DNA of 54,996 bases from IMG/VR virus record IMGVR_UViG_3300045988_171436, positions 1-54,996 of that record; one strand, 5' to 3'. Both the position numbers and the translations under genes were made by a program. Below are positions 67 through 52,837 of this stretch, piece after piece. The notes under the pieces are model-generated. The model was not told where the DNA came from. It searched no databases and was given only the letters and a program-made list of their open reading frames with translations. Source of the DNA: a virus (lineage: Duplodnaviria > Heunggongvirae > Uroviricota > Caudoviricetes). Position 1 is the first letter of the stretch. Each line of letters opens with the position of its first letter.

Positions 67-1230
67 TTACACATCATTAGTACCTTCCTTATTTTTTGAC
101 TGGGACAAATTTGGGACCGATGGGTTCAGGATCGAGTCTATTTGCCGTGCGTGTTCGGTAAGGTGATTAGGTGCAAGGTGAGCATATCGACGAACCATTT
201 CGATAGACTCCCAGCCTCCCATTTCCTGTAACACTGACAACGGGACTCCGGCTTGAACCAGCCAACTTGCCCAGGTGTGTCTCAAGTCGTGAAATCTGAA
301 ATCATCAATACCAGCCCGTCTCAGCGCCGCTTTCCAGGCTGTGTTTGCGTCATACCGCATCTTCCTGACTGTTGGCGCTTTCGTTCCGTCTGGTTTGGTA
401 CAGCTTTCCTTGTACACAAATACCCAACGGTGATGATTCCCGATTTGTTTTTTCAATACGCGACATGCAGTATCATTCAGCGCAACGCCAATTGCGCGGT
501 TTGATTTACTCTCTTCCGGGTTTATCCATGCCACCCGGCGCTGCATATCTATTTGTTGCCATTCAAGGTTGATGATGTTCGAGCGTCTTAGGCCTGTTGC
601 CAGTGCAAATTCAACAACAGACTTTAATGGCTCCGGACATTCATCAATCAGCCTTTGTGCTTCATGGGGCTCCAGCCAGCGGATCCGTTTATTCTTTGGT
701 TGGGGCACTTTAATAATTGGTGCCTTATCCAGCATTTTCCATTCACGCTCTGCGGCTCTTAGTAGGGCCTTTATAAATGAAAGATGCGTAGCCTTCGTTG
801 CAACGGACGCTGGTTTTGGCGTGTATTCTGGAACAGGTTTCCCTTTTTTTCTGCATGCTTCTGCCCTGAGTTTCCAGTTTTCCTCATGACGCCGGTTCGT
901 CATTTTCTGCATTGCTGAATAAATTTTTGATTCAGTAATGTCTCTTAGTTGCATTCCTGCGAAATGTTGAAGCCAGAATCCGATCCGGCTTTTGTCATCG
1001 TCCAGTGATTTTTTATGTGCTTTCTCTTCAAGCCACCTGACACACGCTTCCTCGAACGTTATATCAGGTATTTCACCAAGTTTGCTGACCCGCCATGCTT
1101 CAGCCTTTAGCTTGTCATGGAGTTCTGTCGCCTGCCTTTTGTCCTTTGTTCCAAGAGACTGTTTAAATCTTTTACCGTTCGGCAATGTGAAACTGGCGTA
1201 CCATATTTCACCTCTGCGGAAGAGTGACAT
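67..1230 (-). CDS. int: Tyrosine integrase, P22-like
   Basis: 387 aa; C-terminal HDLRHTWAS and RRYAHL motifs (R-H-R-Y catalytic signature); N-terminus [21 protein letters not shown] typical of P22-family integrases, which target thrW. Confidence 0.9.
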
Positions 1231-5171: not shown

Positions 5172-5194
5172 AGCGTCCTGTAGGGCGCTTTTTT
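5172..5194 (+). terminator. Rho-independent terminator-like hairpin plus T-run
   Basis: AGCGTCC-TGTA-GGGCGCT followed by TTTTTT. Confidence 0.45.
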
Positions 5195-5397: not shown

Positions 5398-5410
5398 ATT
5401 TATAGGTAAT

Positions 5411-5431
5411 AAAAAGCCACCTTTCGGTGGC
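5411..5431 (-). terminator. Rho-independent terminator downstream of cI
   Basis: GCCACC-TTTC-GGTGGC hairpin with A5 on plus strand (T5 on minus) about 20 nt after the cI stop. Confidence 0.65.
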
Positions 5432-5451
5432 CGATGGATGGGATATTGAGG

Positions 5452-7046: not shown

Positions 7047-7381
7047 ACAGTTTAACAACACACTACCGTCGCTCGCAACTGATTGCGCTTCCTGTACCGG
7101 GTGGAAAAGCGAAGGTGGAGTATTGCTATGCAGTAAATGTACCAGGTGACAGGGAAATTGTAACCCACAGCTTTGCAGAGTGGGCTGTGGGTGATTTCAA
7201 CCGGCAGAAGGAGACAGTCCTTTGCGACAAGTTAACCGCTGGTTCAAAGATCACTACGGAGTGCCCGTCAGAGTCATTCGTTGGGAGCCGGAAACACAAC
7301 GGGTTATCTACCTCCGCGAAGGCTATGAGCATGAGTGCTTCAGCCCGCTCGAACAGTTTCGTCGTAAATTCAGGGAAATAG
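7043..7381 (+). CDS. Hypothetical protein; 3' part may be out of frame (see findings)
   Basis: ATGA start/stop overlap with upstream gene; C-terminal third is low-complexity while an overlapping frame is protein-like. Confidence 0.3.
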
Positions 7382-7401
7382 AGGTCGGTCATGAGCACTA
7401 A
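7222..7401 (+). CDS. Candidate small TTG-initiated gene (59 aa) in alternative frame
   Basis: AAGGAG (7208-7213), 8-nt spacer, TTG at 7222; product ...[53 protein letters not shown]. Confidence 0.3.
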
Positions 7402-8332
7402 ATTAACCGGCTATGTATGGGATAGTTGCGCTGCATCAGGCATGAAATTATCCAGCGTGGCAATTATGGCCCGCCTGGCTGATTTCAGTAATGACGAAGG
7501 TGTGTGCTGGCCATCAATTGAAACCATTGCCCGCCAGATTGGCGCGGGGATGAGTACCGTCAGAACGGCTATCGCACGGCTGGAAGCAGAAGGCTGGTTA
7601 ACGCGTAAGGCGCGTCGCCAGGGTAACCGCAATGCGTCGAATGTTTATCAGCTTAACGTTGCGAAGCTTCAGGCAGCGGCATTTTCTCAACTGTCAGATT
7701 CTGACCCGTCAAAATCTGACGCATCAAAATCTGACCCGTCAAAATTTGATGCGTCGAAATCTGGCAAAAAAGCGGGTTTTCACCCGTCAGAATCTGGCGG
7801 GGATCCGTCAGTAAAATCAAAACATGATCCGTCAGATAAAAAAACTTCTCGTCCGGACGCTTCGCAACCGGACACGCAGACGGATGAACAGGATTTTTTA
7901 ACTCGCCATCCTGATGCGGTTGTATTCAGCCCTAAAAAGCGCCAGTGGGGAACGCAGGATGATTTGACCTGCGCACAGTGGCTCTGGAAAAAAATCATCG
8001 CCCTGTACGAGCAGGCCGCCGAATGTGACGGCGAGGTGGTTCGTCCCAAAGAACCGAACTGGACAGCCTGGGCAAACGAAATTCGCCTGATGTGTGTGCA
8101 GGATGGTCGTACTCACAAACAAATCTGCGAGATGTACAGCCGCGTCAGCCGCGATCCGTTCTGGTGCCGTAACGTGCTCAGCCCGTCGAAGCTGCGGGAA
8201 AAATGGGATGAGCTTTCCCTGCGCTTATCGCCGTCCGTAAGCACGTACACCGAAAAACGCGAAGACCCGTACTTCAAATCCAGTTACGACAACGTGGACT
8301 ACAGCCAGATCCCGGCAGGATTCAGGGGGTGA
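7391..8332 (+). CDS. Replication initiation protein (lambda O-like) containing origin iterons
   Basis: 313 aa; N-terminal winged-HTH; central SKSD repeats encoded by DNA iterons; position after cro/cII-like genes. Confidence 0.6.
   Translation: MSTKLTGYVWDSCAASGMKLSSVAIMARLADFSNDEGVCWPSIETIARQIGAGMSTVRTAIARLEAEGWLTRKARRQGNRNASNVYQLNVAKLQAAAFSQLSDSDPSKSDASKSDPSKFDASKSGKKAGFHPSESGGDPSVKSKHDPSDKKTSRPDASQPDTQTDEQDFLTRHPDAVVFSPKKRQWGTQDDLTCAQWLWKKIIALYEQAAECDGEVVRPKEPNWTAWANEIRLMCVQDGRTHKQICEMYSRVSRDPFWCRNVLSPSKLREKWDELSLRLSPSVSTYTEKREDPYFKSSYDNVDYSQIPAGFRG
7695..7850. repeat. Putative origin of replication: iteron array plus A-rich tract inside the O-like gene
   Basis: Repeated CCGTCAAAATCTGACG-type units from 7695 to about 7770, further CCGTCAG repeats, then GATAAAAAAACTT at 7835-7848. 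Confidence 0.5.
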
Positions 8333-8334
8333 TC

Positions 8335-8823
8335 ATGAGTCTGTTAAATGACGTTCAGAAATTCATTGAAGCCCATCCGGGGTGTACTTCCGGAGACATT
8401 GCGGATGCTTTTGCTGGTTACTCACGGCAGCGCGTTCTGCAGTCAGCAAGCAAGTTACGTCAGAGTGGGCGTGTGGCTCACCGTTATGAAGGGGATACAC
8501 GCAGACATTTCCCGCGCCTGACTGAGAGAGCGCAGGAGCCGGAACCACAACCAGTTCGTGAAACCAGACCTGCGCGCAATTTCTATGTCGGCACTAACGA
8601 TCCCCGGGTGATTTTGTGCCTGACCCGCCAGGCGGAAGAACTGGAGTCAAGGGGCTTATACCGTCGTGCTGCAACCGTGTGGATGGCGGCATTCCGTGAA
8701 AGCCACTCCCAGCCAGAACGAAACAATTTTCTGGCGCGTCGTGAGCGGTGCTTACGGAAAAGCAGCAAGCGCGCTGCATCGGGTGAAGAGTGGTATCTGT
8801 CAGGGAATTACGTGGGGGCTTAA
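8335..8823 (+). CDS. Hypothetical phage protein (about 162 aa)
   Basis: AGGGGG RBS 6 nt before ATG 8335; Arg-rich C-terminus. Confidence 0.4.
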   Translation: MSLLNDVQKFIEAHPGCTSGDIADAFAGYSRQRVLQSASKLRQSGRVAHRYEGDTRRHFPRLTERAQEPEPQPVRETRPARNFYVGTNDPRVILCLTRQAEELESRGLYRRAATVWMAAFRESHSQPERNNFLARRERCLRKSSKRAASGEEWYLSGNYVGA

Positions 8824-9476
8824 TGAGTAATAAATATTGCCAGGCGCTGGTGGAACTGCGGAATAAACCAGCCCATGAACTGAAGGAAGTGGGAGATCAG
8901 TGGCGCACGCCGGATAACATTTTCTGGGGAATTAACACCCTGTTTGGTCCGTTTGTTCTGGATCTGTTCACTGACGGTGATAACGCCAAATGTGCCGCGT
9001 ATTACACGGCGGAAGACAACGCGCTGGCGCATGACTGGTCAGAACGTCTTGCGGAGCTTAAAGGTGCTGCCTTTGGTAATCCCCCATACAGCCGCGCCAG
9101 TCAGCATGAGGGGCAATACATCACCGGCATGCGTTACATCATGAAGCATGCCAGTGCCATGCGTGATAAAGGCGGGCGCTATGTTTTCCTGATCAAAGCT
9201 GCCACCAGCGAAGTGTGGTGGCCGGAAGATGCAGACCATATTGCTTTTATTCGCGGGCGTATTGGTTTTGAACTGCCTGTCTGGTTTATCCCGAAAGACG
9301 AGAAGCAGGTGCCGACAGGAGCGTTCTTCGCTGGTGCTATTGCTGTTTTCGATAAGACCTGGAAGGGACCGGCAATCAGCTACATCGGGCGCGATGAACT
9401 TGAGACATGTGGTGAGGCGTTTCTGGCGCAGGTTCGCCAGCAGGCGGAAAAACTGGTCAGGGAGATGGCGGCATGA
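8823..9476 (+). CDS. Phage Dam-like N6-adenine DNA methyltransferase
   Basis: FGNPPYS motif (NPPY catalytic motif IV); TAATG stop/start overlap with upstream gene. Confidence 0.75.
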   Translation: MSNKYCQALVELRNKPAHELKEVGDQWRTPDNIFWGINTLFGPFVLDLFTDGDNAKCAAYYTAEDNALAHDWSERLAELKGAAFGNPPYSRASQHEGQYITGMRYIMKHASAMRDKGGRYVFLIKAATSEVWWPEDADHIAFIRGRIGFELPVWFIPKDEKQVPTGAFFAGAIAVFDKTWKGPAISYIGRDELETCGEAFLAQVRQQAEKLVREMAA

Positions 9477-35542: not shown

Positions 35543-36469
35543 ATGCATCGTATAGACACGAAAACCGCGCAGAAGGATAAGTTCGGCGCGGGTAAGAACG
35601 GTTTTACCCGTGGTAACCCCCAGACCGGCACACCTGCCACCGATCTGGATGATGACTACTTTGACATGTTGCAGGAAGAACTCTGCAGCGTGGTGGAGGC
35701 ATCCGGTGCCAGTCTGGAGAAGGGGAGGCACGACCAGCTGCTTACCGCGCTTCGTGCGCTGCTGTTAAGCCGCAAAAATCCGTTTAGCGATATCAAATCG
35801 GACGGCACGGTGAAAACGGCTCTCGAAAACCTTGGTTTGGGAGATACAAGCGGATACGTGGGACGCTGGGTGAATACCCGGGTTTTCACGTCATCAGGTA
35901 CGTACACCCCGACGCCAGGAACAAAACGGATCAGGGTCACAATAACGGGCGGCGGTGGCGGAGGGGGCGGCTGCAAGGCTATATCCAATAATGAAACGTT
36001 TTTCGGTGCTGGCGGCGGGGCAGGTGGGACAGTAATCACCACGCTGATCCTGACGAAGGATAGTTATCCTGTCACTATCGGTGCAGGTGGGGCCGGCGGC
36101 GTTAGTGCGACGAACGGCCTCAAGGGCGGTGATAGCTCGTTCGGATCGGTAATAGCCCCTGGTGGTGAAGGTGGTGGAAAATCAGGAGTCACAAACACGA
36201 ACGGTGGTAACGGCGGCGTGCCAAGTACTGGCGGTATCAACATCATTGGTGGAAATGGAGGCGACGGTCAGTCCGGAAATATCGGCGTCAGCGGTGAAGG
36301 CGGAACATCGTACTGGGGGGGCGGTGGACGCGCAGGCGCTGGCGGTGGTGTTAGTGGTAAGGCATATGGTTCAGGTGGCGGTGGCGCATACGATGCCGGT
36401 TATAGCGGAACCAGTATGACAGGCGGGAAAGGTGCTGCTGGGATTTGTATTATCGAGGAGTTTGCATAA
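35543..36469 (+). CDS. Tail fibre protein with Gly-rich repeat domain
   Basis: 308 aa with long GGxGG repeats. Confidence 0.65.
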
Positions 36470-36885
36470 TGAATGCGTCATATGCAGTTATTGAAAATGG
36501 GATGGTTGTGAATGTCATTGTCTGGGATGGCGAGGCTGAATTCACAGTGCCGGATAATCAGCAGCTCATTGATATTTCTGATATAAGTGAGCATCCCGGA
36601 ATCGGCTGGGTGTATTCAGACGGGGTATTTACTGCGCCGCTCCCTCCGGAACGTTCTCATGATGAACTGGTAGCTGACGCTGAACAGAAAAAACAGTCGT
36701 TGATAGACGCAGCAATGGTCAATATCAGCGTGATTCAGTTAAAGCTGCAGGCCGGGCGCAAACTGACGCAAGAAGAAACTACCCGACTTAACGTTGTGCT
36801 GGATTATATCGAGGCTGTGACGGCAACAGATACCAGCATTGCACCGGATATTGAGTGGCCGGATGAACCGTGCTTCGCTGAGTAA
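36469..36885 (+). CDS. Tail fibre assembly chaperone
   Basis: ATAATG stop/start overlap; [25 protein letters not shown] typical Tfa start. Confidence 0.6.
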   Translation: MNASYAVIENGMVVNVIVWDGEAEFTVPDNQQLIDISDISEHPGIGWVYSDGVFTAPLPPERSHDELVADAEQKKQSLIDAAMVNISVIQLKLQAGRKLTQEETTRLNVVLDYIEAVTATDTSIAPDIEWPDEPCFAE

Positions 36886-36931: not shown

Positions 36932-36990
36932 GTAATAAAAGTAGGACAAAACTGTGACACATAAAGCCTCGCAATGGTTTGCAAGGCTTT
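36932..36990. repeat. 59-bp imperfect direct repeat, copy 1 (partner 41734-41793), with internal stem-loop
   Basis: About 86 percent identity between copies; internal dyad AAAGCCT-CGCAATGGTTTGCA-AGGCTTT. Confidence 0.7.
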
Positions 36991-37092
36991 GAACGCTTCT
37001 GTATTGATGATGTGACGCGGTTTCGTTTATTTCCATTCTATATATTGATGTCGATTTTTATGAATATAGAGCATACGGATAAACTGCAGTGT

Positions 37093-37145: not shown

Positions 37146-38213
37146 TTAATGAAATTTATCTCGGATGAATTGTTGCGATGGTTTTTCAATGAATATATAT
37201 GACATATAGCTAATTGCCATTAATGTAAGCATGAATAAAATGAATACCTTGGGGCTGTAAAAAAGATCGCGTCCATAGCCAATCTTGTCAGCTAAATAAA
37301 CAACAATGATTTGTAAAGGAAAATGTAAAAGATAAGATGAATAACTGATATCGCCCAACCATTCAATTTTTTTCCCAAAATCGTTTCGTATTGCGCTAAT
37401 TGATACAAGGAAAAAGATTATGGAGGTAAATCCGAATAAGATAATTGAGAATATATCTGCTACTTGCAGGGTAAAGATAACTCCCCATGAGATCAATAGA
37501 AAAACACAAGCAAAAATAAAAAATAACTTTGCGCTAATATTTTTTATGGCCGCAATCGTAATTTTATAAGTCAGACCACCAATAAAGAAAGAGAATGCGC
37601 CGATCATTATGGGATTGTTAATTTTGAAAAAGTAGTACGACAATGCAACTATTAAAATTGATATGAATGTTGTTTTTGATGTGAACTTGCATAATATAAA
37701 AAATATCATGTACATAAGTACTTCAATCGACACGGACCATGTCGGGGCGTTGAAGGACCAACCTCGCTCAAATCCCCATGATTGAATCATCAATAAATTC
37801 AGAATGGCATGGTAAATGTCATTCATAGGATAAACAAAAAAATAATTATGACTTTTAAAGAAAATAATTTGTAATATTGCCACGGCAGCAAATGTAAATA
37901 TATAAAGTGGATATAATCTACTGACACGGTTAACTATAAAAGTTTTTGCTGAGGTTTTATTGCTGTGTATATTGTCAGCGTATAGATAAAAAAATATGAA
38001 TCCAGAAATCATAAAAAACAATTCGACAGCATATAAACCGTAATGATAAAAGACGGAAAAAAATTCATAAAAAGGTTGGCGGTTTATGATTATGTCAGAT
38101 GCAGCATTCTTTTTCATAAAAAAATGTTGCCAATGCCATAACACAACGGAAAGTGCGGCAAATCCTCTCAGAACATCCAGGGTATATATTCTCTTCCCAA
38201 AAACATTCGTCAC
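37146..38213 (-). CDS. Integral-membrane acyltransferase (acyltransferase-3 family; O-antigen acetylase-like)
   Basis: 355 aa, about 10 TM segments, N-terminal LDVLRGFAALSVVLWH motif; very AT-rich. Confidence 0.8.
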   Translation of the reverse strand: MTNVFGKRIYTLDVLRGFAALSVVLWHWQHFFMKKNAASDIIINRQPFYEFFSVFYHYGLYAVELFFMISGFIFFYLYADNIHSNKTSAKTFIVNRVSRLYPLYIFTFAAVAILQIIFFKSHNYFFVYPMNDIYHAILNLLMIQSWGFERGWSFNAPTWSVSIEVLMYMIFFILCKFTSKTTFISILIVALSYYFFKINNPIMIGAFSFFIGGLTYKITIAAIKNISAKLFFIFACVFLLISWGVIFTLQVADIFSIILFGFTSIIFFLVSISAIRNDFGKKIEWLGDISYSSYLLHFPLQIIVVYLADKIGYGRDLFYSPKVFILFMLTLMAISYMSYIFIEKPSQQFIRDKFH

Positions 38214-38764: not shown

Positions 38765-39634
<870 letters not shown>

Positions 39635-39724: not shown

Positions 39725-39765
39725 GAAACCCGTAGCCACGTCGTATGCAAGAACGTGCTACGACT
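39725..39765. repeat. Conserved hairpin element, copy B
   Basis: GAAACC + stem + core ACGTCGTATGCAAGAACGTGCT; stem GTAGCC/GCTAC differs from copy A but pairing is preserved. Confidence 0.6.
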
Positions 39766-40101
39766 GGCTGGTGAACTTCCGATAGTGCGAGTATTGAATG
39801 ATTTCCAACTGTTATCGATTTTGCGTATTTTTTGCATGAGAGGATTTTTACCTCCTCCCACCGATCCTCCATGGCTTTACGCCAGTGTCTCTGGTCTGCT
39901 ATGTGCCAGAAGCGGACGTTGCGGGACGTCAGATATCTAAAAAAACTAATGGTCCGCTTGGATAGATACTTACACAGGATGCAATAAAGAGTTTCTATTT
40001 CTTTGTGGTAGCAAACTTTGATTTCTGAAGGATAATACCTCCAATAAGTTGAAATCACATATATCGCTAAAGACTCTATACAACAACCAAGAGAGACCGC
40101 A

Positions 40102-41487
40102 ATGGATAGTGTCAGTAGTGTTGAGCGTTTAAGAACAAAAGCTTTTTATCAGTTGCTTGTGGATAGGCTTGGAACTGAGGCCTGGGCTGCTCGCAAAGCT
40201 GCATATTTCAAGCGCATAAGAGAGAAGGAGGCTAAGTTTAACATCAATCTGCCGATAGAGCCCCAGCTCTTCATACCAGCAGAAGATGACATCGACTGGT
40301 ACATTCTGGCGTCGTATCTGTCTCATGATTTTCCATATAGTGATGCTACTTACAGCAGCAGACGTATCTACCCCTATGCTATGGCCATCGGAGCTGTTGC
40401 AGACCAGCTTCGCAAAGTCCCATACGTCGATGATGTTCTGGACAAAATGCTAGCAAATAACAATAAACCAGAAACTCAAATTTTTGAGCTGCTGACGGCA
40501 TCGTTCTACCTAAAGAACGGCTATGAGGTTGCCTTCATCCCAGAAAGCAGCATTGTTTGGCCCGATGGAAAGACCAAAAAATCACCGGATATGCTTGTCA
40601 AGTTAGGTGATCTGGAGTTCTACGTCGAGTGCAAAAGGTCGGATAAGCAAACCAAGTACTCAAAGACAGAAGAGCAAGCCTGGGCCAACATCTGGCATCA
40701 ATTGAGCCAACATATGCTCAAAGTCGCACCATGGAACATTGTCGATATAATTTTCCATGAGCAGGTCGCCAGTGTGACTCCGGCAGACGTTATTAAAGCG
40801 GTGAATCTAGCCATTAAAGGGGGGACGGGAAAAGCTAATGAAGGTTCAATCAGTGTGGGAATACGAGCCATCGACAAATTAGGTCTCAGACGTCACTACA
40901 GAAAATTTTCAGTCAGAGCCAATAGCCCACAGCATGAATTGCTGGTATTTGGGGATCTAGATAGCAATGAGAAACGAAGTATCTCGACTATCGCTCAGAG
41001 AGTTATTCGTCCTGGCACCAATAACGATATTCTCAACATTTTTGTAGAGGATGTTGCAAAGTGCGTTGGAGCTCAGTGGCGCTGCGATCATGAGATTTCT
41101 CTTGGCCTCAGATCCAAGCATTTCAAGAGCTTGCTCAATGATGGAGTCATGCAGATTCCCCCTGATCGTGCTGGCGTGGTGCATATTTGGTATGAGACTT
41201 GCGAAGGCATAGATATTGAAGAACTACGTAGGGATAAAAACATGGAGCATATCTCGGCCTACGATGCCTCTAAAACAACTGTGTTGGGTGCTTTCCTGCA
41301 TGCCGTTAATTATTACCCATTAGAGGACAACTATGAGTGGGCTGAGACTGTTCAAGACTTTGCCCGTGTCCCGGATTTGATGGGGCTCTTCCTTAGACAG
41401 CCATTGATGCTTACATCTGACTCGACGCGTGGGGTCGAAGGTGTCACACATTGGGAGCAAGATAAGGCCGCAAAAAGCATGCGTTGA
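40102..41487 (+). CDS. PD-(D/E)xK nuclease-like protein with large unknown C-terminal region (461 aa)
   Basis: ELLTASFYLKNGYEV ... SPDMLVKLGDLEFYVECKRSDK gives the E / PD / ExK triad spacing. Confidence 0.5.
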   Translation: MDSVSSVERLRTKAFYQLLVDRLGTEAWAARKAAYFKRIREKEAKFNINLPIEPQLFIPAEDDIDWYILASYLSHDFPYSDATYSSRRIYPYAMAIGAVADQLRKVPYVDDVLDKMLANNNKPETQIFELLTASFYLKNGYEVAFIPESSIVWPDGKTKKSPDMLVKLGDLEFYVECKRSDKQTKYSKTEEQAWANIWHQLSQHMLKVAPWNIVDIIFHEQVASVTPADVIKAVNLAIKGGTGKANEGSISVGIRAIDKLGLRRHYRKFSVRANSPQHELLVFGDLDSNEKRSISTIAQRVIRPGTNNDILNIFVEDVAKCVGAQWRCDHEISLGLRSKHFKSLLNDGVMQIPPDRAGVVHIWYETCEGIDIEELRRDKNMEHISAYDASKTTVLGAFLHAVNYYPLEDNYEWAETVQDFARVPDLMGLFLRQPLMLTSDSTRGVEGVTHWEQDKAAKSMR

Positions 41488-41733
41488 AAGTGGCTGGAAT
41501 ATGGCGATACTGGGAACATAACTATTCACCGCGTTTCATAACCCACTCTCGGCTGATTAACACACGTTATCGTTGGAGGAAAGGACCAATTCCCTACGTC
41601 CGCTCCTCGCTCATAACAGACATAAACTTCAGTTATGGCATAAAGGTATGCATGCTGGGTGGGGAAAGTATGAAGGAAAAGAAGACTGCTGCGCCGTTTG
41701 TCGTCACGTTTATCTTCATTGGCTATGCAAGTC

Positions 41734-41793
41734 GTAATACAAGGTGGGACAAAACTGAGACACATAAGGCCTCGCAATGGCTTGCAAGGCTTT
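41734..41793. repeat. 59-bp imperfect direct repeat, copy 2
   Basis: Aligned to 36932-36990. Confidence 0.7.
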
Positions 41794-41869
41794 ACATGTT
41801 TTGATGTGGTGGGACGTGTGAGCGCAGTATTGATGGGGTAATGCTTTGAATTAGAAGCGGATTCTTATA

Positions 41870-41916
41870 ATTCGTAATGCGAAGGTCGTAGGTTCGACTC
41901 CTATTATCGGCACCAT
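41870..41916 (+). repeat. attR core: duplicated 3' end of tRNA-Thr
   Basis: Exact 47-bp copy of 7-53. Confidence 0.8.
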
Positions 41917-42264: not shown

Positions 42265-43098
42265 TCAGTTAGTAACGTCGGAATCTTCATTCTCAGAATG
42301 ACCCTTTCTCCAGCCCGCTGCAAATTCAGACGGTGTCTGATAATTCAGCGTGGAGTGCGGGCGGCATTCGTTATAATCCTGCCGCCAGTCATTAATAATT
42401 TTCCTGGCATGAACGATATCGCTGAACCAGTGCTCATTCAAACATTCATCGCGAAATCGTCCGTTAAAGCTCTCAATAAATCCGTTCTGCGTTGGCTTGC
42501 CCGGCTGGATTAAGCGCAACTCAACACCATGCTCAAAGGCCCATTGATCCAGTGCACGGCAAGTGAACTCCGGCCCCTGGTCAGTTCTTATCGTCGCCGG
42601 ATAGCCTCGAAACAGTGCAATGCTGTCCAGAATACGCGTGACCTGAACGCCTGAAATCCCAAAGGCAACAGTGACCGTCAGGCATTCCTTTGTGAAATCA
42701 TCGACGCAGGTAAGACACTTGATCCTGCGACCGGTGGAAAGTGCGTCCATGACGAAATCCATCGACCAGGTTAGATTGGGCGCCGCCGGACGGAGCAGCG
42801 GCAGACGTTCTGTTGCCAGCCCTTTACGACGTCTTCTGCGTTTTACGCCCAGACCACTGAGGTGATAAAGCCGGTACACGCGCTTATGATTAACATGAAG
42901 CCCTTCACGGCGCAGCAACTGCCAAATACGACGGTAGCCAAAACGCCTGCGCTCCAGTGCCAGCTCAGTGATGCGCCCTGATAAATGCGCATCAGCAGCC
43001 GGACGGTGAGCCTCATAGCGGCAGGTCGACAGGGATAAACCTGTAAGCCTGCAGGCACGACGTTGCGACAGACCGGTCGCATCACACATCAACATCAC
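42265..43098 (-). CDS. IS3-family transposase OrfB (DDE integrase domain)
   Basis: DDE-type catalytic region (WSMDFVMD ... TDQGPEF ... [16 protein letters not shown]). Confidence 0.85.
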
Positions 43099-43121
43099 GG
43101 CTTCCCGCTTCTGGTCTGTCG

Positions 43122-43385
43122 TCAGTACTTTCGCCCAAGAGCCACCTGAAGCGCCTCTTTATCCAGCATGGCTTCGGCAAGCAGCTTCTTGAGTCTGGTG
43201 TTCTCTTCCTCAAGCGACTTCAGGCGCTTAACTTCAGGCACCTCCATACCGCCATACTTCTTACGCCAGGTGTAAAACGTGGCATCGGAAATGGCATGCT
43301 TGCGGCAGAGTTCACCGGCGGGTACCCCAGCTTCGGCTTCGCGGAGAATACTGATGATCTGTTCGTCGGAAAAACGCTTCTTCAT
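43122..43385 (-). CDS. IS3-family transposase OrfA (HTH)
   Basis: 87 aa, HTH plus leucine-zipper-like C-terminus, directly upstream of orfB. Confidence 0.85.
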
Positions 43386-43831: not shown

Positions 43832-45190
43832 TTAAACTTTGAAATTGCCATCTAAATGTTGTTCAAATCGCCCTGTTAATATCAATAACTGGATTAAAAG
43901 GGAGGATACTCTATTTCTGTTGGAGTCGATACCTAACATATATAAGTCACCGGCAACTGTATTTATATTGCCATGCTCAATGCAATTTGGTAGCATTTTT
44001 AAATCTTGAGTTTTTAGTATTTTTTTGTATTTTCGTCCGATTAATTCAACAACCTTTTTCGTCCCAATCTCAGATATAATCTTATATGGACAATTGAAAA
44101 GCTCAAAAAAAATCTCATATTCTTCTTGAGACTTTTCTAGCAATTCATTTAGTTCTAAAAAAAAGTCTTTCCCATTAATATATTCTTTCCATATGTCCAT
44201 ACGTACAACATTTTTTTTATCATAGTATGGTTCTAAACTTGAAATCGGTTTTCCAATGACAATATCATTATTTGTTGATTTATAGTTGAACTTAACATAG
44301 CCCTTTAGTAAATTGTTATTACCCTCTTCTGTATTTTGGTGGTTTTTATTTATTGCTGTCATAATCATGGTTTTTGATTTTTGATTCCACGAATTGTCAT
44401 TATCTATCAAATTTGAATCTACAAGTATGTTATTTATAGTGCTATTATTGCAACTTAATATTTTTATTTTACCTTCTTCAATATACGGAGCATCAGAATC
44501 GAGAGATAGTTTATACCAACGTGATTTATCCCCATCTTTTTTTATTGCCAACCCAAAAGGCTCATTGGTTCCTACACCAACATATAATGGCAAATAAATT
44601 TTTTTGCCATTTACTTGGTTGCATTTTATTATTTTTAGATGAATTTTTTCTTTTTCTACATGTAGAAAATTATCTTTAAAATAGTCACGCAACTCTGTGT
44701 GATTTATTTCATTAAAGTCAATTTGGCTTATTTTTCTTGAAACATCAAATTGCTTATCCCATTGAGGAAACTCGAAAAATTCTAAATCAATGACTACACC
44801 ATCCTTAAGGCCTAGTTGTCTTAAATCGTTTAAGATACTATCATTTTGTATTACCGATTCTTTCCTGGAAACCTCAATGCGATAATCTAAACCCATAAGG
44901 TGATAATTGAAGTTATGATATAATGATGTCCTGAAATCCCATCGTCCAAATAAGTCCTTTTCGATACCACGATCCTCTTTGATGAATTTAAAAAGTTCAA
45001 TCCCAAAAAAAGAATTTTCCACATCATTAATTAAAGAAAAATTGAATTTTTCGTTTGAATATATGAAGCTCTTTAAAATATAAGGTAGGTTTTTGTCCGG
45101 GCCTAATATTTCATCTGTCATTATTACATCTGACTTAATTAAATCATTTGTTTTTTTAATTCTTTCATTTATTGATTCAATAAATCTCAT
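43832..45190 (-). CDS. Hypothetical protein (452 aa), very AT-rich
   Basis: Long ORF, Asn/Lys/Ile-rich; no recognised motif. Confidence 0.5.
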   Translation of the reverse strand: MRFIESINERIKKTNDLIKSDVIMTDEILGPDKNLPYILKSFIYSNEKFNFSLINDVENSFFGIELFKFIKEDRGIEKDLFGRWDFRTSLYHNFNYHLMGLDYRIEVSRKESVIQNDSILNDLRQLGLKDGVVIDLEFFEFPQWDKQFDVSRKISQIDFNEINHTELRDYFKDNFLHVEKEKIHLKIIKCNQVNGKKIYLPLYVGVGTNEPFGLAIKKDGDKSRWYKLSLDSDAPYIEEGKIKILSCNNSTINNILVDSNLIDNDNSWNQKSKTMIMTAINKNHQNTEEGNNNLLKGYVKFNYKSTNNDIVIGKPISSLEPYYDKKNVVRMDIWKEYINGKDFFLELNELLEKSQEEYEIFFELFNCPYKIISEIGTKKVVELIGRKYKKILKTQDLKMLPNCIEHGNINTVAGDLYMLGIDSNRNRVSSLLIQLLILTGRFEQHLDGNFKV

Positions 45191-45808: not shown

Positions 45809-46807
45809 CTAACTTTGCTTATCATTCAATTTGTCAAGTAGTATTTTTAACGTAAGCAAAAGTCGCTTTTGAAATTGGTTGGTGATTTCTGGGAGTCGAT
45901 GATTTATTTTAGTATCACCACTATAAAATAAATTTCGACTTTTATACGACTCAAAACGTCCTTCTGATGTTTGGTCAGGGAAAAGCAAATATTTTTCAAT
46001 GCATGCATTGTTCAGGATAACTCTATATGCTTTTGGCATATCGTCTAAAAGACCATCATGTATGATATGGTTTCGAACACATTCTATTTCATTAATAAAT
46101 GGACATTGCTCAAATAAAGATCCTTCATAATTATTTAAGCTCACTTTCTTTTTGTCGCCATATTGAGAGTTTTTGGCTGTCAATTTAACATAAGTAGAGA
46201 ACTGTGTTTTTAAATTTTCAATTTCTATAGCTAGTTTTGTTATGTAGTCAAGCAAACTGTGCATACGGATATAAATAAAACTAAGTAATGCAAAGAGCTT
46301 GGTCACGACTGGTGATGTCACATATCTTATACCGTCCTCCTCTTTAATGTTAGGGTAAAACAAGGGTTCAAAATTTAACGTGTAATAAAACTCCCCTTGA
46401 AGTTGCATCACTTCCTTGCTGCACTCCTGTATGCTACTTACAATTTTACGGCAATCAAAAAGGTAAAGGGCTTTGTTTACGTCAGTATTTCCTTTAAATT
46501 TATCAATAAATAAAATAAATGTTTCTTTTGAAACTACGGATTCTGAATTCAGACCTGCTGTTGATAAAAACTCAGGGGCCATATAAAGGAACTTGTGGTA
46601 GTTTTCTAACCCATCAAAAATGCTATTAGCTATAGCATCATGGATATTAACGCATAATGCATCGATCGCATAAAGATGATTCTCTCTGTTTGGGTACCAT
46701 CCTCCTTGAGGATCATGTATAAAGTAAATATCTTCACCTCCAATAGATTCAGTTGGTATCCCTTTTAAAGTCAAATACATGTTTTCATGTGAAGGTATCA
46801 TATCCAT
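45809..46807 (-). CDS. Hypothetical protein (332 aa) with HEPN-like Rx4H motif
   Basis: AT-rich; C-terminal ECVRNHIIHDG matches the R-x4-H signature; surrounding helices predicted. Confidence 0.5.
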   Translation of the reverse strand: MDMIPSHENMYLTLKGIPTESIGGEDIYFIHDPQGGWYPNRENHLYAIDALCVNIHDAIANSIFDGLENYHKFLYMAPEFLSTAGLNSESVVSKETFILFIDKFKGNTDVNKALYLFDCRKIVSSIQECSKEVMQLQGEFYYTLNFEPLFYPNIKEEDGIRYVTSPVVTKLFALLSFIYIRMHSLLDYITKLAIEIENLKTQFSTYVKLTAKNSQYGDKKKVSLNNYEGSLFEQCPFINEIECVRNHIIHDGLLDDMPKAYRVILNNACIEKYLLFPDQTSEGRFESYKSRNLFYSGDTKINHRLPEITNQFQKRLLLTLKILLDKLNDKQS

Positions 46808-47157
46808 AATTTTTCTGGAATTCCTCTTATGAAGCGAAAAACTGAGATGTGTACATAGGTTAATTTAAACAAGATAATCAAAATTTGAAAGCAATAATTT
46901 TTCATCTCAGGGGTTATCAAAAGACGCAGGGGGTTATATGGGTTTTTCTTTACTCAACCTAACGTCCGCTCCTGGCACAGAGCGGAAAAGCTCACTGGGC
47001 CAAAGGTCTGCTGTGAGCGAGGAGAGGAAGTTCCAGTGTTCTGCAACAGACGAAGGCCCTAATCAATGGATAGCTGGTAATGGTTAATATGCCATTGCTC
47101 TAAGTTAAAAGAATCTGTGTGCTCCTGGCTCTGGTAGTCTCAATGAAGATAATATTA

Positions 47158-50100
47158 TCAAGGTGAAGTGATCGTTTTAAATACATCAAAAAAATAAGAT
47201 GGGAAGCCTTGTAGCATTACTTCAAATCTCTCTGGGTTTTGTCGAATCATGTGTCGGGCGTCAAAACTAACTTGAATAGCACCTTGAGTCGTTCCTTCTG
47301 CAAGACACTGGGCAATTACGCGTTCAGCAAATCCCGCTTCAAAAAAGGCAATGCAACTCTGATTCGGAAGTCCATATTTCAATCGCTTCTGAAGAAGATC
47401 AACATATTCTCTAAAAACCTCACCCGCCTGTTCTGAAGAGAACGCGAGAAAGGATTCCTTTACCGCTGCGAGCAACAGCGCAAACTCAAAGCCAAATGTT
47501 TGTTCACACAGGTCTACAACCACATCAAGATCAAATTTTCTTTGGTTCGCACCATAGGGATAGGATGCACCCAATTTGTCAAGCCGTTGAACGAGAGCTG
47601 CAAACGAATCTCCAGCCAGCCACCCCAATGCTAATTTCTTAAGTGCCCCATTAGGAACTATGTCGCTCAACCGTTTTTCATTAGATAAGAGTACTAAAAG
47701 CGGCCATAGCATATCAAACAGGTGATCGGCAGAGGTTGCTCCCTCGAGTGCGTTTGCATTTGTAGTGACCCATGATTCGATTGCCAACGCTTGATCAATA
47801 CCTAACAAAGTCCGCCCGAAACGCTTCTGGATCGCTGTATCTGGAACAAAAAGTTCGATCCTTCGCGCCACAGACTCGAAGATATCTGTCAGGAGTATTT
47901 TTTGCTCTTCAGTGGCAAGCGAGTAGGCAAGTGTTTCAGTAACCAATTCTCGAGAGTTGTCCACAAAAGTTTCGGGCTGAACATCACTACGATATGTCAT
48001 TAAGAAGCTTTCAACAGCTTCAATTATCTTTTTCTTGGATTTAAGTTGTTCGATTAGTGAAGCGACCGAAAAGTTCTGTTTAGGAATATTGATAGGAACG
48101 CTCTCTACCCACTTTAAAAGAGCTTCCCAGTCATTGACAATGTAAGTGGCTACTTCAGCAGAGCTTGGAGAGCTTAGAATAACTGTTCCGAGGTCATTTC
48201 GCAGAGGATCGAAAAGAGAAAGCAATGTACTTCCAGTTGGCTCAGCACTATCAGGATTGATTAGATTGATCGTTTCTTGCCAACGGTACGTCTTTGCGAA
48301 ACGCTCGTCATAGAGACGGGGGTCAGTGAAAATAACAGTACCCTCACCGTACATTCCGGCACGTCCAGCGCGTCCCATGAGATTATGGAAGTCGCGTACT
48401 TTGATCGATTCACGCCCCTGCATTGCGCTTGTTACAAGTAGGTATCGAATCGGAAGGTTAACACCCTGTGCAAGCGTCGAGGTGCAGATGATCAATCGAA
48501 TAAGGCTTTGCCTCATAGCATACTCAATAGCCAGACGAACACCTTGGGGAGTGTTGCCGTGATGAGCAAAAATGCCTAAAGCAGCTGCTTGTGTCAAATA
48601 TGCATTAGCACCAAAATTACGTTCGAAGAGATAAACAAAGCGACGAATCTCATTAGGGTCACTATGGGCAGAAGGTGGCTCAAGTGAAATTCCACGACGA
48701 AAAATATCTTCGGCGGCCTCACGAACAATTTTTGCAGCAGAAGACTTTCTTCCTGTGAAAATAGCAACCCCACCATTTTTCAGCAGACGTAAACTAAGAT
48801 ATAACGCTATGGAGCCACTCTCCTGAGTAGGGAAAAAACGATCCTTTCTTTCCTTAGGTAATCGAGGCATTTTTTCTGAAACAATAACTCGCGGGACAAA
48901 GAATTTCTGATCGCTATCAGAGGCCACATTGAACTGAAGTTGACCATCTTTACCTTTCGGAAGGCTGGCAAAGGCAATGAGTCTACTAGCCTGTAAGGCT
49001 CTACTGGAGACAACCTTTGAACCGTCATTTAATAGCCATGCAGCAACAGAAGCAGCATTCTGAATTACTGCTGAAATCAACACGCTCTGGGCATTTTCGT
49101 GTAGCATTCGCTTAATGGATGTTAACAGCAGTTCATAAGTTACACCCCGGCTGCCTGTGTCAAACTGATGCCCTTCGTCATAAACTACCAATCCAGCTTT
49201 CTGAACAATGTCTGGCTCTTGTCGAAGTATGTAAAGAAGCTTTTCCGGGGTAAGAATAATGACTTGTGGCTTCGATTCGACCTCTGAGTCAAATATTCCA
49301 GATTCCAAATCGAGAAAATCTGATAAGTTAGAAAAATCGAACTCGACATCTGGTTGCAACGCGTCACTGGGTTGATTGACGTCATAGCCATCATCCTTGA
49401 ATGCCTTTTCAAGATCGTTTGCTATCTCTTGGCATAGTGCGCGGAAGGGGGCAATAACTAAAGCCAATTTCGTACGAGCAGAAAGAAATGCCGACCGAAT
49501 AATAAGCTCGGTAGCTCTAGATTTCCCGGCGCTCGTCGGCATCTGAACAACACCTGATGTCCCTTTATACAATCCAGCCTCTCCTAGCAAGCGCTGAGAT
49601 GGCCACATTTCCTTAATTGACATAGAACGCGATAAATATGTATCCCACTTTTCTTGCGGGAGGTTGCTATAGCGTGGAAGTAATGTCCAAGCAGAATTAG
49701 CGATGCGAGTGGCACTAATCGCTCCGAGCAAATCGGCCATAAGTAGGTCATGTGCAGACGCATGGCTATAGGCCCATTCGCGCAATGATTTAATAGCATC
49801 ATTGGCTTTCTGTCGGCCATTCAGGCCATTTCTGAAGTGTTGGCTCAAAACATCCAAAATATCTTTTGCACGTGAAGACTCTAGTGTCTCGTTGGTATGC
49901 TCCCAAGGCCGATCCATCGCAGTTTTAACTGCAATAGCTAAAGTATCGTGCTTAGGAAAATCTAGTTGGCTCAGTTTAGATAATTGGACTGCAGCATTTC
50001 CGGGTACATCACCAAGATAGAAACCAGCAGCGGCAAGTATGCGAAGATTGAAGGAGAGTTCTTTGTTAAGCAGGGAATCCTCAAAAGCTTGAAGGACTTG

Positions 50101-50373
50101 AGCCGAAAAAATAACCTCATCCAGTGGGGTTTGGGATTGTGCTTCAATCGAATTGCCGATGGTCTTAGCCACCACTTCGGACGCAAAGTCACCGACAGTA
50201 CCAACAGCTAATGGAAACTGCATCTCCAAATTGAGATCATCAGGAAGCTCTATATGGTCTCCTTCAGGAACTCCATACTCAAACATTTTTCCTTTTGATA
50301 GCGTAACTGCCGCCGCATATCGAGCACGTTTTTTAGGCTTCATTTTCTGCCCTCCAATAGAGAGCGTGAACAA
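47158..50373 (-). CDS. hamB: SF2 DExH helicase (Hachiman HamB-like)
   Basis: Walker A QMPTSAGKSRA, motif II VYDEGHQF, motif VI HNLMGRAGRAG; 41-nt overlap with upstream gene. Confidence 0.6.
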   Translation of the reverse strand: MFTLSIGGQKMKPKKRARYAAAVTLSKGKMFEYGVPEGDHIELPDDLNLEMQFPLAVGTVGDFASEVVAKTIGNSIEAQSQTPLDEVIFSAQVLQAFEDSLLNKELSFNLRILAAAGFYLGDVPGNAAVQLSKLSQLDFPKHDTLAIAVKTAMDRPWEHTNETLESSRAKDILDVLSQHFRNGLNGRQKANDAIKSLREWAYSHASAHDLLMADLLGAISATRIANSAWTLLPRYSNLPQEKWDTYLSRSMSIKEMWPSQRLLGEAGLYKGTSGVVQMPTSAGKSRATELIIRSAFLSARTKLALVIAPFRALCQEIANDLEKAFKDDGYDVNQPSDALQPDVEFDFSNLSDFLDLESGIFDSEVESKPQVIILTPEKLLYILRQEPDIVQKAGLVVYDEGHQFDTGSRGVTYELLLTSIKRMLHENAQSVLISAVIQNAASVAAWLLNDGSKVVSSRALQASRLIAFASLPKGKDGQLQFNVASDSDQKFFVPRVIVSEKMPRLPKERKDRFFPTQESGSIALYLSLRLLKNGGVAIFTGRKSSAAKIVREAAEDIFRRGISLEPPSAHSDPNEIRRFVYLFERNFGANAYLTQAAALGIFAHHGNTPQGVRLAIEYAMRQSLIRLIICTSTLAQGVNLPIRYLLVTSAMQGRESIKVRDFHNLMGRAGRAGMYGEGTVIFTDPRLYDERFAKTYRWQETINLINPDSAEPTGSTLLSLFDPLRNDLGTVILSSPSSAEVATYIVNDWEALLKWVESVPINIPKQNFSVASLIEQLKSKKKIIEAVESFLMTYRSDVQPETFVDNSRELVTETLAYSLATEEQKILLTDIFESVARRIELFVPDTAIQKRFGRTLLGIDQALAIESWVTTNANALEGATSADHLFDMLWPLLVLLSNEKRLSDIVPNGALKKLALGWLAGDSFAALVQRLDKLGASYPYGANQRKFDLDVVVDLCEQTFGFEFALLLAAVKESFLAFSSEQAGEVFREYVDLLQKRLKYGLPNQSCIAFFEAGFAERVIAQCLAEGTTQGAIQVSFDARHMIRQNPERFEVMLQGFPSYFFDVFKTITSP

Positions 50374-51172
50374 ATTTCATAAGCGATTTAGCATGTATCA
50401 CAACCAACATAAGGTTTTTAATATTTTCATGCGAAGTGCAGTCTGTAGTTTTAGATATATGAACCGGATCATAAAGACTTGAACAAAAAACAGCCGCCGC
50501 CCCTGTCATTCGTACATAAGGGACATCCAACCCTTCTTGAAAGCGTTCCACGCGATCTGCACCTTCTTCATCTTGATGATCAATTAAACGGCGCTTCATC
50601 GCATTAAGGGATTCTGAAATTCTATACACATCCTTTATCGAGTCGATAACGGCGTCTTGCAATCTAGGCTTTGCTTTCTTACCACTGAGTTGTGCTTTCG
50701 ACTCAAAAGAAATCAAGATATCTTTTGTAGATGGCCGTGATGGGCCTATGCCATCAAACTTAAACGCTAAGACATCTGTTCCCTTTGGGGACTCGTTGCG
50801 AACCATTTTGTTGTCATATCGGGTACGTGGAACCCAAAAACCAAAATGGCTTTCAAGTAGATCCGCGATAAGGATTTCAGCAAAATCACCGGAGCGCGTT
50901 GCTGGGCCAAAATCTTCAGACTCATCAGGAAACACCAAGTCTCTCAAATACTCGGCTCGCGATTTGTTAGTCCCTCTGCGCAGGCGATCAATTTGGCTAT
51001 CAAGACAGTAATGCTCACGGAAATGTTTGGCCCATGCGGATAGTACAAGCCCTGCTTCAAGATCGATTTCGAGCTCGTATACCTCTACCTCATTGCCGTC
51101 AGAAGTGGTTATGCTATGTTCAGCTTTTTTGAGCCAAGCTGAGTACGGTTGTCCAGCATTCATTGTAACCAT
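50333..51172 (-). CDS. hamA: HamA-like (DUF1837-type) protein, putative PD-(D/E)xK-like
   Basis: 279 aa immediately upstream of and overlapping the helicase; GTDVLAF ... ISFESKAQL acidic/Lys pattern. Confidence 0.45.
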   Translation of the reverse strand: MVTMNAGQPYSAWLKKAEHSITTSDGNEVEVYELEIDLEAGLVLSAWAKHFREHYCLDSQIDRLRRGTNKSRAEYLRDLVFPDESEDFGPATRSGDFAEILIADLLESHFGFWVPRTRYDNKMVRNESPKGTDVLAFKFDGIGPSRPSTKDILISFESKAQLSGKKAKPRLQDAVIDSIKDVYRISESLNAMKRRLIDHQDEEGADRVERFQEGLDVPYVRMTGAAAVFCSSLYDPVHISKTTDCTSHENIKNLMLVVIHAKSLMKFVHALYWRAENEA

Positions 51173-51472: not shown

Positions 51473-52837
51473 ATGGATATCTTAGCGTTAAAAGAATTAC
51501 TCCGCCCTGTGGTGGGAAACTTGAAAGATCACTGCACTAACGAAAAAATCCCTGATCTCTGTCGTCACTTGGGTCTACCTGTGCCCAAAGAAGAAGGATC
51601 CAAGCGCGAGCGCTTGCATGGAGCCTTTGATTTACTCGATGACGCAGATATGCCGGAGTTTGCAAGAGCGCTTTTGGCGCAGAAGGTTTTCAATCCCAGC
51701 ATACGCAACAATATCCAGGACCTCCTATGGGCGGACGAGCCCATCATCGATATACCCAAGCGTCATCGTCGTGAACTGGCAGAAGCTCTGCAACCATTTG
51801 AATTATTTGGCCACTGGGAAAATTTCAAGCGTTTATTAAATGATCTGTTTGTTTTTCCGTTGGATTTAAGTGAAATGTTTTCGATTCATGAGACAGGGAT
51901 TCTTGGCGAAATTCACCGACATTTTGTACGAAATCCTGAAGACGGTGACGTGGCATGGTTATTTGAAAAACTACAGGTTGTCGAACTATCAGCTCCACGT
52001 TTCCGTAGGTGGCTCGAAGGTTTAGTCTCTGCGGACGTGCAGATCAGTATCGAAAGGCAGTTAGCAAAAGTTGAGGCCGTTAATAAAGTTTTAAGAACCT
52101 GTGGAGCTGAGCTTATCCATAGCTCTGATGCTGAAGGCTATCCGGTTTTCAGCCTGATATCGTTGCGGACATTTCGGGGGCGCCCTAAGAACATTATTTT
52201 TGCCTCTCTCACCAAACCCGATATTCGCTTGAGTGACTCTCTTAATAACGAAATTGAAATTCTTTCAAACCCCAATCAGGTTTTGATCTATGATCGTCCA
52301 TTAAGTACCGAGGGATTGAGTTGGCGTGAACTGCAGGCATGGTGGGCAGATTTTATTTGCGAAGAGAATAGCGAAGAGGCAAAAATTTCGCTTTATCGAC
52401 GATTGCAGCAAAGTTTGCCTAATTCGTCTCCGCCCCAGAAAAAATTTTTCAAGGAATTCTTTCGACAATATAGGTCAGCAATTTATGACTTACCTGCATT
52501 GCTACCAGAAGTTTGGCTGCACTGGGATCCCAAAACCGTATCTGAGAGAGGCGCTGGAGCATTACTCAATCATCGGATGGATTTTCTTTTGCTAATGCCT
52601 GATGGCAGTAGGGTTGTGATCGAAATCGATGGCATTCAACATTACTCAGATGAAAAAGGTAGGGCAAGTAAGAGTAAGTATGCAGATTTGGTTGCAGCTG
52701 ATCGTAGCTTAAAATTGGCAGGTTATGATATTTATCGTTTTGCAGGTGTCGAACTTCATCACGACGATGCTTCATACAAAATAAAGTACTTTTTTGATAC
52801 TTTATTTAAATATCATGGGATAAAAATAAAATTTTAG
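51473..52837 (+). CDS. Protein with C-terminal DUF559-like endonuclease domain (454 aa)
   Basis: C-terminal RVVIEIDGIQHYSD ... RSLKLAGYDIYRFAG resembles the DUF559/Vsr-like core; N-terminal 330 aa unknown. Confidence 0.5.
   Translation: MDILALKELLRPVVGNLKDHCTNEKIPDLCRHLGLPVPKEEGSKRERLHGAFDLLDDADMPEFARALLAQKVFNPSIRNNIQDLLWADEPIIDIPKRHRRELAEALQPFELFGHWENFKRLLNDLFVFPLDLSEMFSIHETGILGEIHRHFVRNPEDGDVAWLFEKLQVVELSAPRFRRWLEGLVSADVQISIERQLAKVEAVNKVLRTCGAELIHSSDAEGYPVFSLISLRTFRGRPKNIIFASLTKPDIRLSDSLNNEIEILSNPNQVLIYDRPLSTEGLSWRELQAWWADFICEENSEEAKISLYRRLQQSLPNSSPPQKKFFKEFFRQYRSAIYDLPALLPEVWLHWDPKTVSERGAGALLNHRMDFLLLMPDGSRVVIEIDGIQHYSDEKGRASKSKYADLVAADRSLKLAGYDIYRFAGVELHHDDASYKIKYFFDTLFKYHGIKIKF

Follow-up and report, generated by a model that had tools for sequence, protein, structure and literature searches.

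What does a lone gene at the very end of a prophage do, and how did it come to be there? We pursued this question in the caudoviricete record IMGVR_UViG_3300045988_171436, all 54,996 nucleotides of which were analysed (hereafter the window). At window 40102..41487, on the plus strand, lies an intact, ATG-started open reading frame (ORF) of 461 amino acids (aa). The reading we favour, with modest confidence, is that it encodes a stand-alone metal-dependent PD-(D/E)xK endonuclease, most likely a single-gene defence against phage or other invading DNA, carried as cargo by prophages, integrative and conjugative elements (ICEs) and plasmids, and in E. coli and Klebsiella forming a 1.72-kb cassette with palindromic exchange joints. 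The gene and its three parts are as follows.

40102..41487, plus strand: 461-aa ORF, uncharacterised PD-(D/E)xK nuclease family protein (PHROG 37220); from sequence, family searches and model.
40102..40461, plus strand: N-terminal helical region, aa 1-120, with conserved W28, R31, D62, Y67, R88, P91 and G97; from modelled secondary structure and conservation.
40462..40821, plus strand: PD-(D/E)xK core, aa ~121-240, with E129 (40486-40488), D163 (40588-40590), E176 (40627-40629), K178 (40633-40635) and the invariant E190.
40822..41484, plus strand: C-terminal α/β region, aa 241-461, with W326, R337, G348, Q351, H361, E365, E373, R376, H400 and E415 conserved family-wide; not an independent module.

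An initial annotation, made from the letters alone, had read a restriction-endonuclease signature in the N-terminal half, and each element of it is present: E129 (FELLTASFYL), P162-D163 (SPDML) and E176-C177-K178 (FYVECK). The corresponding fold is also confidently predicted. An AlphaFold model built from the family alignment (mean predicted local distance difference test score, pLDDT, 87; predicted template modelling score, pTM, 0.87) contains the α-β-β-β-α-β core of the PD-(D/E)xK superfamily, and the catalytic residues are placed canonically: E129 in helix 123-138, D163 immediately ahead of strand 164-168, and E176-x-K178 within strand 171-179. When 39 of 132 homologues (53-92% identity) are aligned, the five motif residues are invariant, as are many residues of the C-terminal half. 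Among 46 family members sharing 19-54% identity, E129, D163, E190, Q351, H361 and E365 never vary, and E176, C177, K178, Y186, R88, P91 and E415 are retained in at least 95%. The active site is intact and strongly conserved, on a restriction-endonuclease fold that is confidently predicted. Some PD-(D/E)xK folds are catalytically dead, and activity is predicted only, so the protein could in principle bind DNA or regulate through a retained nuclease fold that no longer cleaves. We regard this as highly improbable: even among members with as little as 19% identity, all four catalytic residues show little or no variation, the mark of an active site that has been maintained.

Which nuclease family is this? 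Pfam yields only a sub-threshold AHJR-like match over aa 133-204 (E 0.0065; 16.5 bits against a cut-off of 26.1), NCBIfam has no match for the protein, and PHROGs holds it as phrog_37220, function unknown. Weak Pfam matches among the 46 family members are confined to Mrr_cat (PF04471; two members, best E 0.0025, with no match for the 461-aa protein itself), Hjc (one member, E 5.4e-4) and AHJR-like, and their PADLOC matches are single ones at E 7e-4 to 9e-3. Family profiles compared with Protein Data Bank (PDB) sequences gave no meaningful match and so no solved relative by sequence. Foldseek with the whole protein returned nothing at E<0.01 in the PDB or among the BFVD viral models; weak local resemblances of the catalytic core include Holliday-junction resolvases and I-Ssp6803I. 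A literature search by protein accession, PHROG identifier and the palindrome sequence described below found no publication.

The three-part protein as a whole is the conserved unit, because its length is near-constant, its matches run end to end and its conserved residues are spread across the parts. A word-indexed search returned the 132 homologues, each of ~460 aa, all named "hypothetical protein" and mainly from Pseudomonas and enterics. An exhaustive profile search of 1.84 billion representative proteins returned 513 clusters at E<=1e-3, of which 101 reach E<=1e-30; almost all have 430-470 aa and match the 461-aa protein from end to end. The order of helical N-terminus, nuclease core and C-terminal α/β region is fixed in the 513 representative clusters, with no fused domains. 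Longer homologues of 510-590 aa were considered as fused variants and rejected, since their extensions resemble miscalled starts and a Pfam search shows no additional domains in these proteins. A distant subfamily occurs in Bacteroidota, Vibrio, Salmonella and Desulfuromonadales, unnamed except for a sporadic automated "Restriction endonuclease" label.

The C-terminal half had been described as lacking any recognisable motif. This stands in so far as Pfam and fold searches recognise no domain there; they likewise reveal no reader or winged-helix DNA-binding domain anywhere in the protein, and the N- and C-terminal regions are of unassigned function. Yet the region is conserved across the family and integrated with the core. 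Modelled separately, the C-terminal 221 aa reach a pLDDT of 57 (a model not used for fold searches), against the high pTM of the full model, which suggests that the region is packed against the rest of the protein and is not a separable module. Profile-profile comparison among the protein's parts found no internal duplication, and a second nuclease domain in the C-terminal region, a candidate we considered, was not detectable by it. In the model, Q351, H361, E365, E373, H400 and E415 lie on successive strands and one helix and could form a metal or ligand site.

Where does such a gene reside? It is found only on mobile elements, with a rare and patchy distribution. Of 5,426 complete E. coli genomes, 42 have it, each time at >=99% identity; it also occurs in the records of two phages, Escherichia phage 899 and Yersinia phage GMG73, and on plasmids, including conjugative ones, of Klebsiella, Enterobacter, Serratia and Aeromonas. 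The carriers comprise the contractile-tail prophage of the window, P2-like phages, an ICE, and IncFIB and IncA/C-type plasmids. In P2-like prophages the gene occupies the G/FI (Z/fun) cargo slot beside a DUF3800 gene; Z/fun is one of the two classical P2 hotspots (bioRxiv 10.1101/2024.10.15.618418), and Rousset et al. 2022 covered solely the other, old/tin (PMC9122126). The ICE copy sits between insertion sequence (IS) elements and an antitoxin gene. Gabija adjoins the homologue on Aeromonas plasmid pAsa4, a P. aeruginosa integrase island holds a homologue between Lamassu LmuB and AbiTii, and others lie at the edges of a Salmonella 186-like prophage and of Vibrio and Aeromonas integrase islets. 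The family thus recurs in defence islands and mobile-element hotspots, in the company of CMoRE, Hachiman, AbiJ, Gabija, Lamassu and AbiTii and at P2 Z/fun. Partial copies spanning aa 1-274 only (81% identity), with no annotated gene, are present on ~145-kb plasmids of Klebsiella, Citrobacter, E. coli and Raoultella, with a second matching place in some of the same records; these suggest a disrupted or split gene.

Does the nuclease act with a partner? As part of a multi-gene system, for instance as the nuclease of a restriction-modification (RM) pair, it would have its partner elsewhere or a variable one, and a methyltransferase does lie within a few kb in two of 12 contexts compared (an RM methyltransferase on the Stenotrophomonas chromosome, and one on the Klebsiella IncFIB plasmid). 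Across all 12, no neighbouring gene is conserved and no partner or methyltransferase is kept; the window and the P2-like phages have no methyltransferase nearby. The missing partner methylase remarked on in the initial annotation is therefore general: none is adjacent in the window, none is conserved among the contexts, and none lies in the 1.72-kb mobile block, of which our gene is the sole gene. We judge a multi-gene system distinctly unlikely.

The exclusive association with mobile elements would also suit a nuclease that serves the element itself, in recombination or repair, in processing element DNA, in degrading host DNA or in countering host defence, and the weak sequence and fold resemblances do include Holliday-junction resolvases. 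Those enzymes, Hjc and AHJR-like, supply the sole Pfam-level sequence hints and some of the local core fold matches, but they are housekeeping dimers of ~120-140 aa, whereas our protein is a rare mobile cargo of 461 aa with extra regions, and the scores stay below threshold. Homology to a housekeeping nuclease, which would have spoken against the initial annotation, was not found: the AHJR-like match falls below the cut-off and Hjc is matched by only one of the 46 members. Moreover, the gene lies in dispensable, hypervariable cargo slots, not in replication or recombination modules, unrelated genes replace it between identical flanks, and its very different carriers have no common life-cycle need. 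An element-serving role is in our view unlikely.

How does a single gene reach such different replicons? Four unrelated mobile-element settings (the window, P2-like prophages, the ICE and the Klebsiella plasmid) share a block of 1.72 kb, window 39894-41621, at 98.6-99.7% identity. The block contains the nuclease gene alone with 208 bp upstream and 134 bp downstream, and both ends fall inside copies of the palindrome GTCCGCT-N10-AGCGGAC. The copies have identical arms and different loops, yTGTGCCArr on the left (L) and CCTCGCTCnn on the right (R). The window holds three copies, far above chance in 55 kb.

39894..39917, plus strand: left L-type palindrome, GTCTGCT-ATGTGCCAGA-AGCGGAC, with one left-arm mismatch; from homology breakpoints.
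39918..40101, plus strand: upstream untranslated region of 184 bp that moves with the gene, inside the shared block.
41598..41621, plus strand: right R-type palindrome, GTCCGCT-CCTCGCTCAT-AACAGAC, with a degenerate right arm; from homology breakpoints.
46964..46987, minus strand: third L-type copy, in reverse orientation, ~157 bp upstream of the cargo gene 45809..46807 (minus strand); from motif match.

A natural swap reveals what the palindromes do. E. coli ZYS9073 (NZ_CP159529) carries the same prophage end, 99.9% identical to the window up to 39916 and 99.7% identical from 41595 on, with an unrelated 350-aa gene (NZ_CP159529 locus, 4692-5741) between the same two palindromes. At the left joint, homology to carriers of our gene begins and homology to this sibling with different cargo stops; at the right joint, homology to same-gene carriers ends at 41612-41621. 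Because same-cargo homology stops at the outer edges and different-cargo homology at the inner edges, the palindromes are the joints, and cargo genes are exchanged at them between unrelated mobile elements, with the joints visible at base level. Arm variants (GTCTGCT, GCCCGCT, AGCAGAC, AACAGAC) vary by context, and the crossovers therefore fall within 24 bp. As single-stranded DNA the intact hairpins are modestly stable (L -9.3, R -6.5 kcal/mol); the R copy of the window no longer folds into a hairpin. Rfam has no family matching the palindromes. We do not count as a gene the 106-aa ORF at 41484..41804, which overlaps the stop codon: it starts with TTG, has no family match and crosses the cassette joint into DNA not common to the other carriers.

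The bracket extends well beyond this gene. A scan of viral contigs for the L motif found at least 120 loci, and the bracket and cargo counts that follow come from the 120 listed. Sixty-two of them hold 65 L-to-R brackets, 565-5,803 bp long (median 1,466) and mostly with one ORF each. Save for two isolated exceptions the palindrome copies lie on one strand; arrays are ordered L-R-L-R, and in eight of nine close cases the start of R precedes the start of the next L by 42 bp. The cargo lies in either orientation (largest ORF on the plus strand in 40 brackets, on the minus strand in 25), which weakens a candidate explanation of the palindromes as plain promoter and terminator. The 88 cargo ORFs of >=100 aa fall into at least 52 clusters. 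Among 33 cargo representatives, PADLOC recognised PD-T7-1, PDC-S33, PD-T7-5, DarG, DarT, a pAgo-associated nuclease, NsnA, PD-T4-2_A, LmuA, TIR/ThsB and SAVED-HNH, among others, and Pfam adds RelA/SpoT, HEPN, GmrSD_N and RES. One bracket, in IMGVR_UViG_2585427727_000010 (locus coordinates 6740-9229), holds a 484-aa member of our family (29% identical over 458 aa, E 5e-57); this second lineage means that the family joined the cassette pool at least twice. No palindromes lie beside the members in Aeromonas, Pseudomonas, Stenotrophomonas, Salmonella, Vibrio and Olivibacter; the bracket is accordingly a property of the cassette platform and not of the gene family.

Could the nuclease itself drive the exchange? 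A selfish enzyme might cut at or near the palindromes to spread its cassette in homing style, or kill cells that lose the gene. The near-identity of the cassette in four unrelated replicons would fit, PD-(D/E)xK homing endonucleases exist, and one of them, I-Ssp6803I, is among the weak fold matches. Against this, the same bracket surrounds at least 52 unrelated cargo families, so mobility is not encoded by the cargo; the family members just listed do without palindromes; flanks differ wholly between contexts, unlike in homing; and the cassette holds no antitoxin-like ORF. We consider a selfish nuclease very improbable, and for the cassette at large the differing flanks and the range of cargo led us to reject a homing-endonuclease reading.

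What, then, recognises the palindromes? Other Enterobacterales also have the exact L motif, and it is numerous in metagenome-assembled genomes of soil Alphaproteobacteria (Pseudolabrys, Xanthobacteraceae, Hyphomicrobiales), so that its 21 specified bases are common to enteric phage hotspots and soil bacteria. In the Alphaproteobacteria, hairpins with the same stem cluster in twos or threes with a 45-46 bp period and three loop classes, reach 17 copies per 8 kb and lie nearly all on one strand, with ordinary chromosomal genes between the clusters. A dedicated defence-cassette platform there was rejected because the same hairpins separate ordinary genes; in that lineage the element seems to behave like repetitive extragenic palindromes (REP) or bacterial interspersed mosaic elements (BIME).

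We offer a tentative and, on balance, doubtful proposal for the enteric elements: L and R are heterospecific recombination sites of a natural cassette-exchange system, in which paired crossovers, L×L and R×R, would exchange entire defence genes among phages, ICEs and plasmids with no excision step. A hypothetical recombinase, or an enzyme that binds hairpins, would carry them out, and the 461-aa nuclease would be one uncharacterised defence family in the pool. The arrangement would resemble engineered cassette exchange between heterospecific lox or FRT sites: loxP and lox2272 share arms and differ in their centres, and L and R likewise differ over their 10 central nt. The alternative is recombination over short homology, at REP-like hairpins that are conserved. 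The alphaproteobacterial data favour such a general hairpin repeat, whereas the two conserved loop classes and their fixed order favour specific recognition. A 2004 paper by Nilsson et al. (Mol Biol Evol 21:1) reportedly concerns, as its title suggests, site-specific recombination at P2 cargo loci, and may already note repeats at the joints.

These joints bear directly on how defence genes circulate. A 2026 Nucleic Acids Research study of P2/P4 defence hotspots left gene movement to unrelated elements unexplained, with transposons absent and flanking homology lacking (PMC13586616). The swap between the window and ZYS9073 makes exchange joints readable at base resolution, and heterospecific sites, if that proposal is true, would explain by what mechanism P2-like phages exchange defence genes with unrelated elements. 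The anatomy of the cassette may matter more than the protein. Dozens of known defence genes lie between the same palindromes, and this makes the question directly testable. The brackets could also serve as a search handle for new defence genes.

Returning to the protein, how well does defence explain it? The initial annotation had proposed a candidate single-gene defence or exclusion nuclease, and the lone gene, its mobile cargo siting among defence genes and its intact, conserved nuclease site all favour that proposal. Several observations weigh on the other side. PADLOC v2, whose models include PD-T7-5, Shedu and Hachiman, has no match for the protein at E<=0.1, and we infer the family's link to phage resistance from context. 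Such slots also take cargo that is not defensive, namely an O-antigen acyltransferase, a HAD hydrolase and a NUDIX protein, and in ZYS9073 the occupant, itself uncharacterised, bears the annotation 'lysogenic conversion protein' and matches nothing in Pfam or PADLOC. The 184-bp upstream region presumably holds the gene's own promoter and ribosome-binding site, but a strict sigma-70 scan found no consensus promoter in it. The gating role given below to the C-terminal region is purely one that we infer.

If the nuclease is defensive, the protein would have to protect self-DNA unaided, since its gene is accompanied by neither a methyltransferase nor an immunity gene. Most likely, in our view, the nuclease is gated or targeted by the tightly packed C-terminal region and the Gln/His/Glu cluster conserved there. 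The enzyme might stay silent until a phage cue appears, as in triggered, abortive-infection systems, or its cleavage might be restricted to a DNA feature absent from the host, in a direct, type IV-like manner. A defence nuclease of this sort would represent a widespread family (at least 513 representative clusters in Gammaproteobacteria, Bacteroidota and Desulfuromonadales) missed by current defence-finding libraries, and its conserved C-terminal region may show a new way to keep a lone nuclease harmless to its host.

The surroundings of the gene in the window fit a prophage cargo module next to a defence island. The prophage runs from an integrase (67..1230) through tail genes to a tail-fibre assembly gene (36445..36885); its cargo module then holds an acyltransferase, PD-T4-3 and the nuclease gene, the last of the prophage before a tRNA-Thr fragment.

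37146..38213, minus strand: Acyl_transf_3 acyltransferase; from Pfam.
38765..39538, minus strand: PD-T4-3 / CMoRE GIY-YIG type IV restriction enzyme; PADLOC E 3.8e-140.
41870..41916, plus strand: 3' fragment of tRNA-Thr, the right attachment site of the prophage; from homology.

The divergent GIY-YIG gene pointed out from the letters alone is this PD-T4-3, on the minus strand of the same module, with our gene on the plus strand. Characterisation of PD-T4-3, under the name CMoRE, has shown a type IV enzyme that works as a single component (PMC12923530); it is for that reason a neighbour and not a partner, and it lies outside the shared block, so a functional pairing was rejected. ARAGORN found no complete tRNA in the window. 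The intergenic stretch 39725-39878, which lies between PD-T4-3 and the L palindrome, is 80-90% identical to unannotated DNA in many E. coli genomes and, on that homology, is taken to be a repeated prophage-associated element. Copies of a direct repeat of ~60 bp, ~90% identical, stand on either side of the cargo module as a whole, at 36932-36991 directly after the tail-fibre assembly gene and at 41734-41793 directly before the attachment site; the repeat contains a G+C-rich, terminator-like hairpin, GCCTCGCAATGGyTTGCAAGGC.

A few hundred bases past the attachment site lies an IS3-family insertion sequence (42265-43385); it includes a programmed frameshift element of the IS1222 type (Rfam RF00383, 43038-43155, E 2.6e-33). 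The defence island outside the prophage comprises Hachiman, with the HamB helicase at 47158..50373 and HamA at 50333..51172, followed by a gene for a protein with an AbiJ N-terminal domain (51473..52837). Between the IS3 element and Hachiman are two low-GC (29-35%) genes on the minus strand, 43832-45190 (452 aa) and 45809-46807 (332 aa); neither has an informative family match, the 332-aa product being phrog_31026, function unknown, and both are candidate uncharacterised defence or cargo genes.

How does the nuclease compare with known systems? A close parallel in design is PD-T7-5, a DUF4365-type single-gene defence of E. coli prophage hotspots with a nuclease in the N-terminal half and an uncharacterised C-terminal part. 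PD-T7-5 also occupies the same palindrome-bracketed P2-like cassettes (two cargo representatives match it at E 1.5e-40, and two match DUF4365). The families are nevertheless separate: one distant member of ours only touches PD-T7-5 (E 0.0033), and our protein begins with 120 additional, helical aa and ends in a different C-terminal region. The literature search found no mechanistic paper on PD-T7-5. From Mrr-type type IV enzymes and AF1548 (PDB 1y88) the protein differs in having no above-threshold Mrr_cat match, no recognisable reader or winged-helix domain and another order of regions. Similarity to Shedu (SduA), Hachiman HamA and NucC is confined to the nuclease core, and neither PADLOC nor Pfam matches the protein to DUF4263, HamA or NucC; HamA and NucC depend on partner proteins or on a cyclic nucleotide, while our protein stands alone. 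CMoRE is likewise a single-gene nuclease defence in the same prophage cargo module, but it has a GIY-YIG fold and an unrelated sequence, and sits outside the palindrome bracket. Classical RM systems differ in encoding a cognate methyltransferase with the nuclease.

The cassettes invite a comparison of their own. They recall integron cassettes in holding mostly one gene per unit, with imperfect palindromes of fixed orientation between units, but the bracketed cargo lies in either orientation. By inspection, the arms GTCCGCT/AGCGGAC are followed by GTTGCGG, unlike the GTTRRRY core of attC, and no integron integrase lies beside the arrays in the annotated or Pfam-marked carrier contexts; on these grounds an integron reading was rejected. 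The hairpins share with REP/BIME elements the habit, seen in Alphaproteobacteria, of clustering as intergenic repeats with the same stem, while the enteric copies are few, three in the 55-kb window, and stand at cargo boundaries. Since by these comparisons the protein falls outside each named family, we place it, with its conserved C-terminal region of unassigned function, in a new family of a known kind, that of lone or effector PD-(D/E)xK defence nucleases such as PD-T7-5, Mrr-type enzymes and Shedu.

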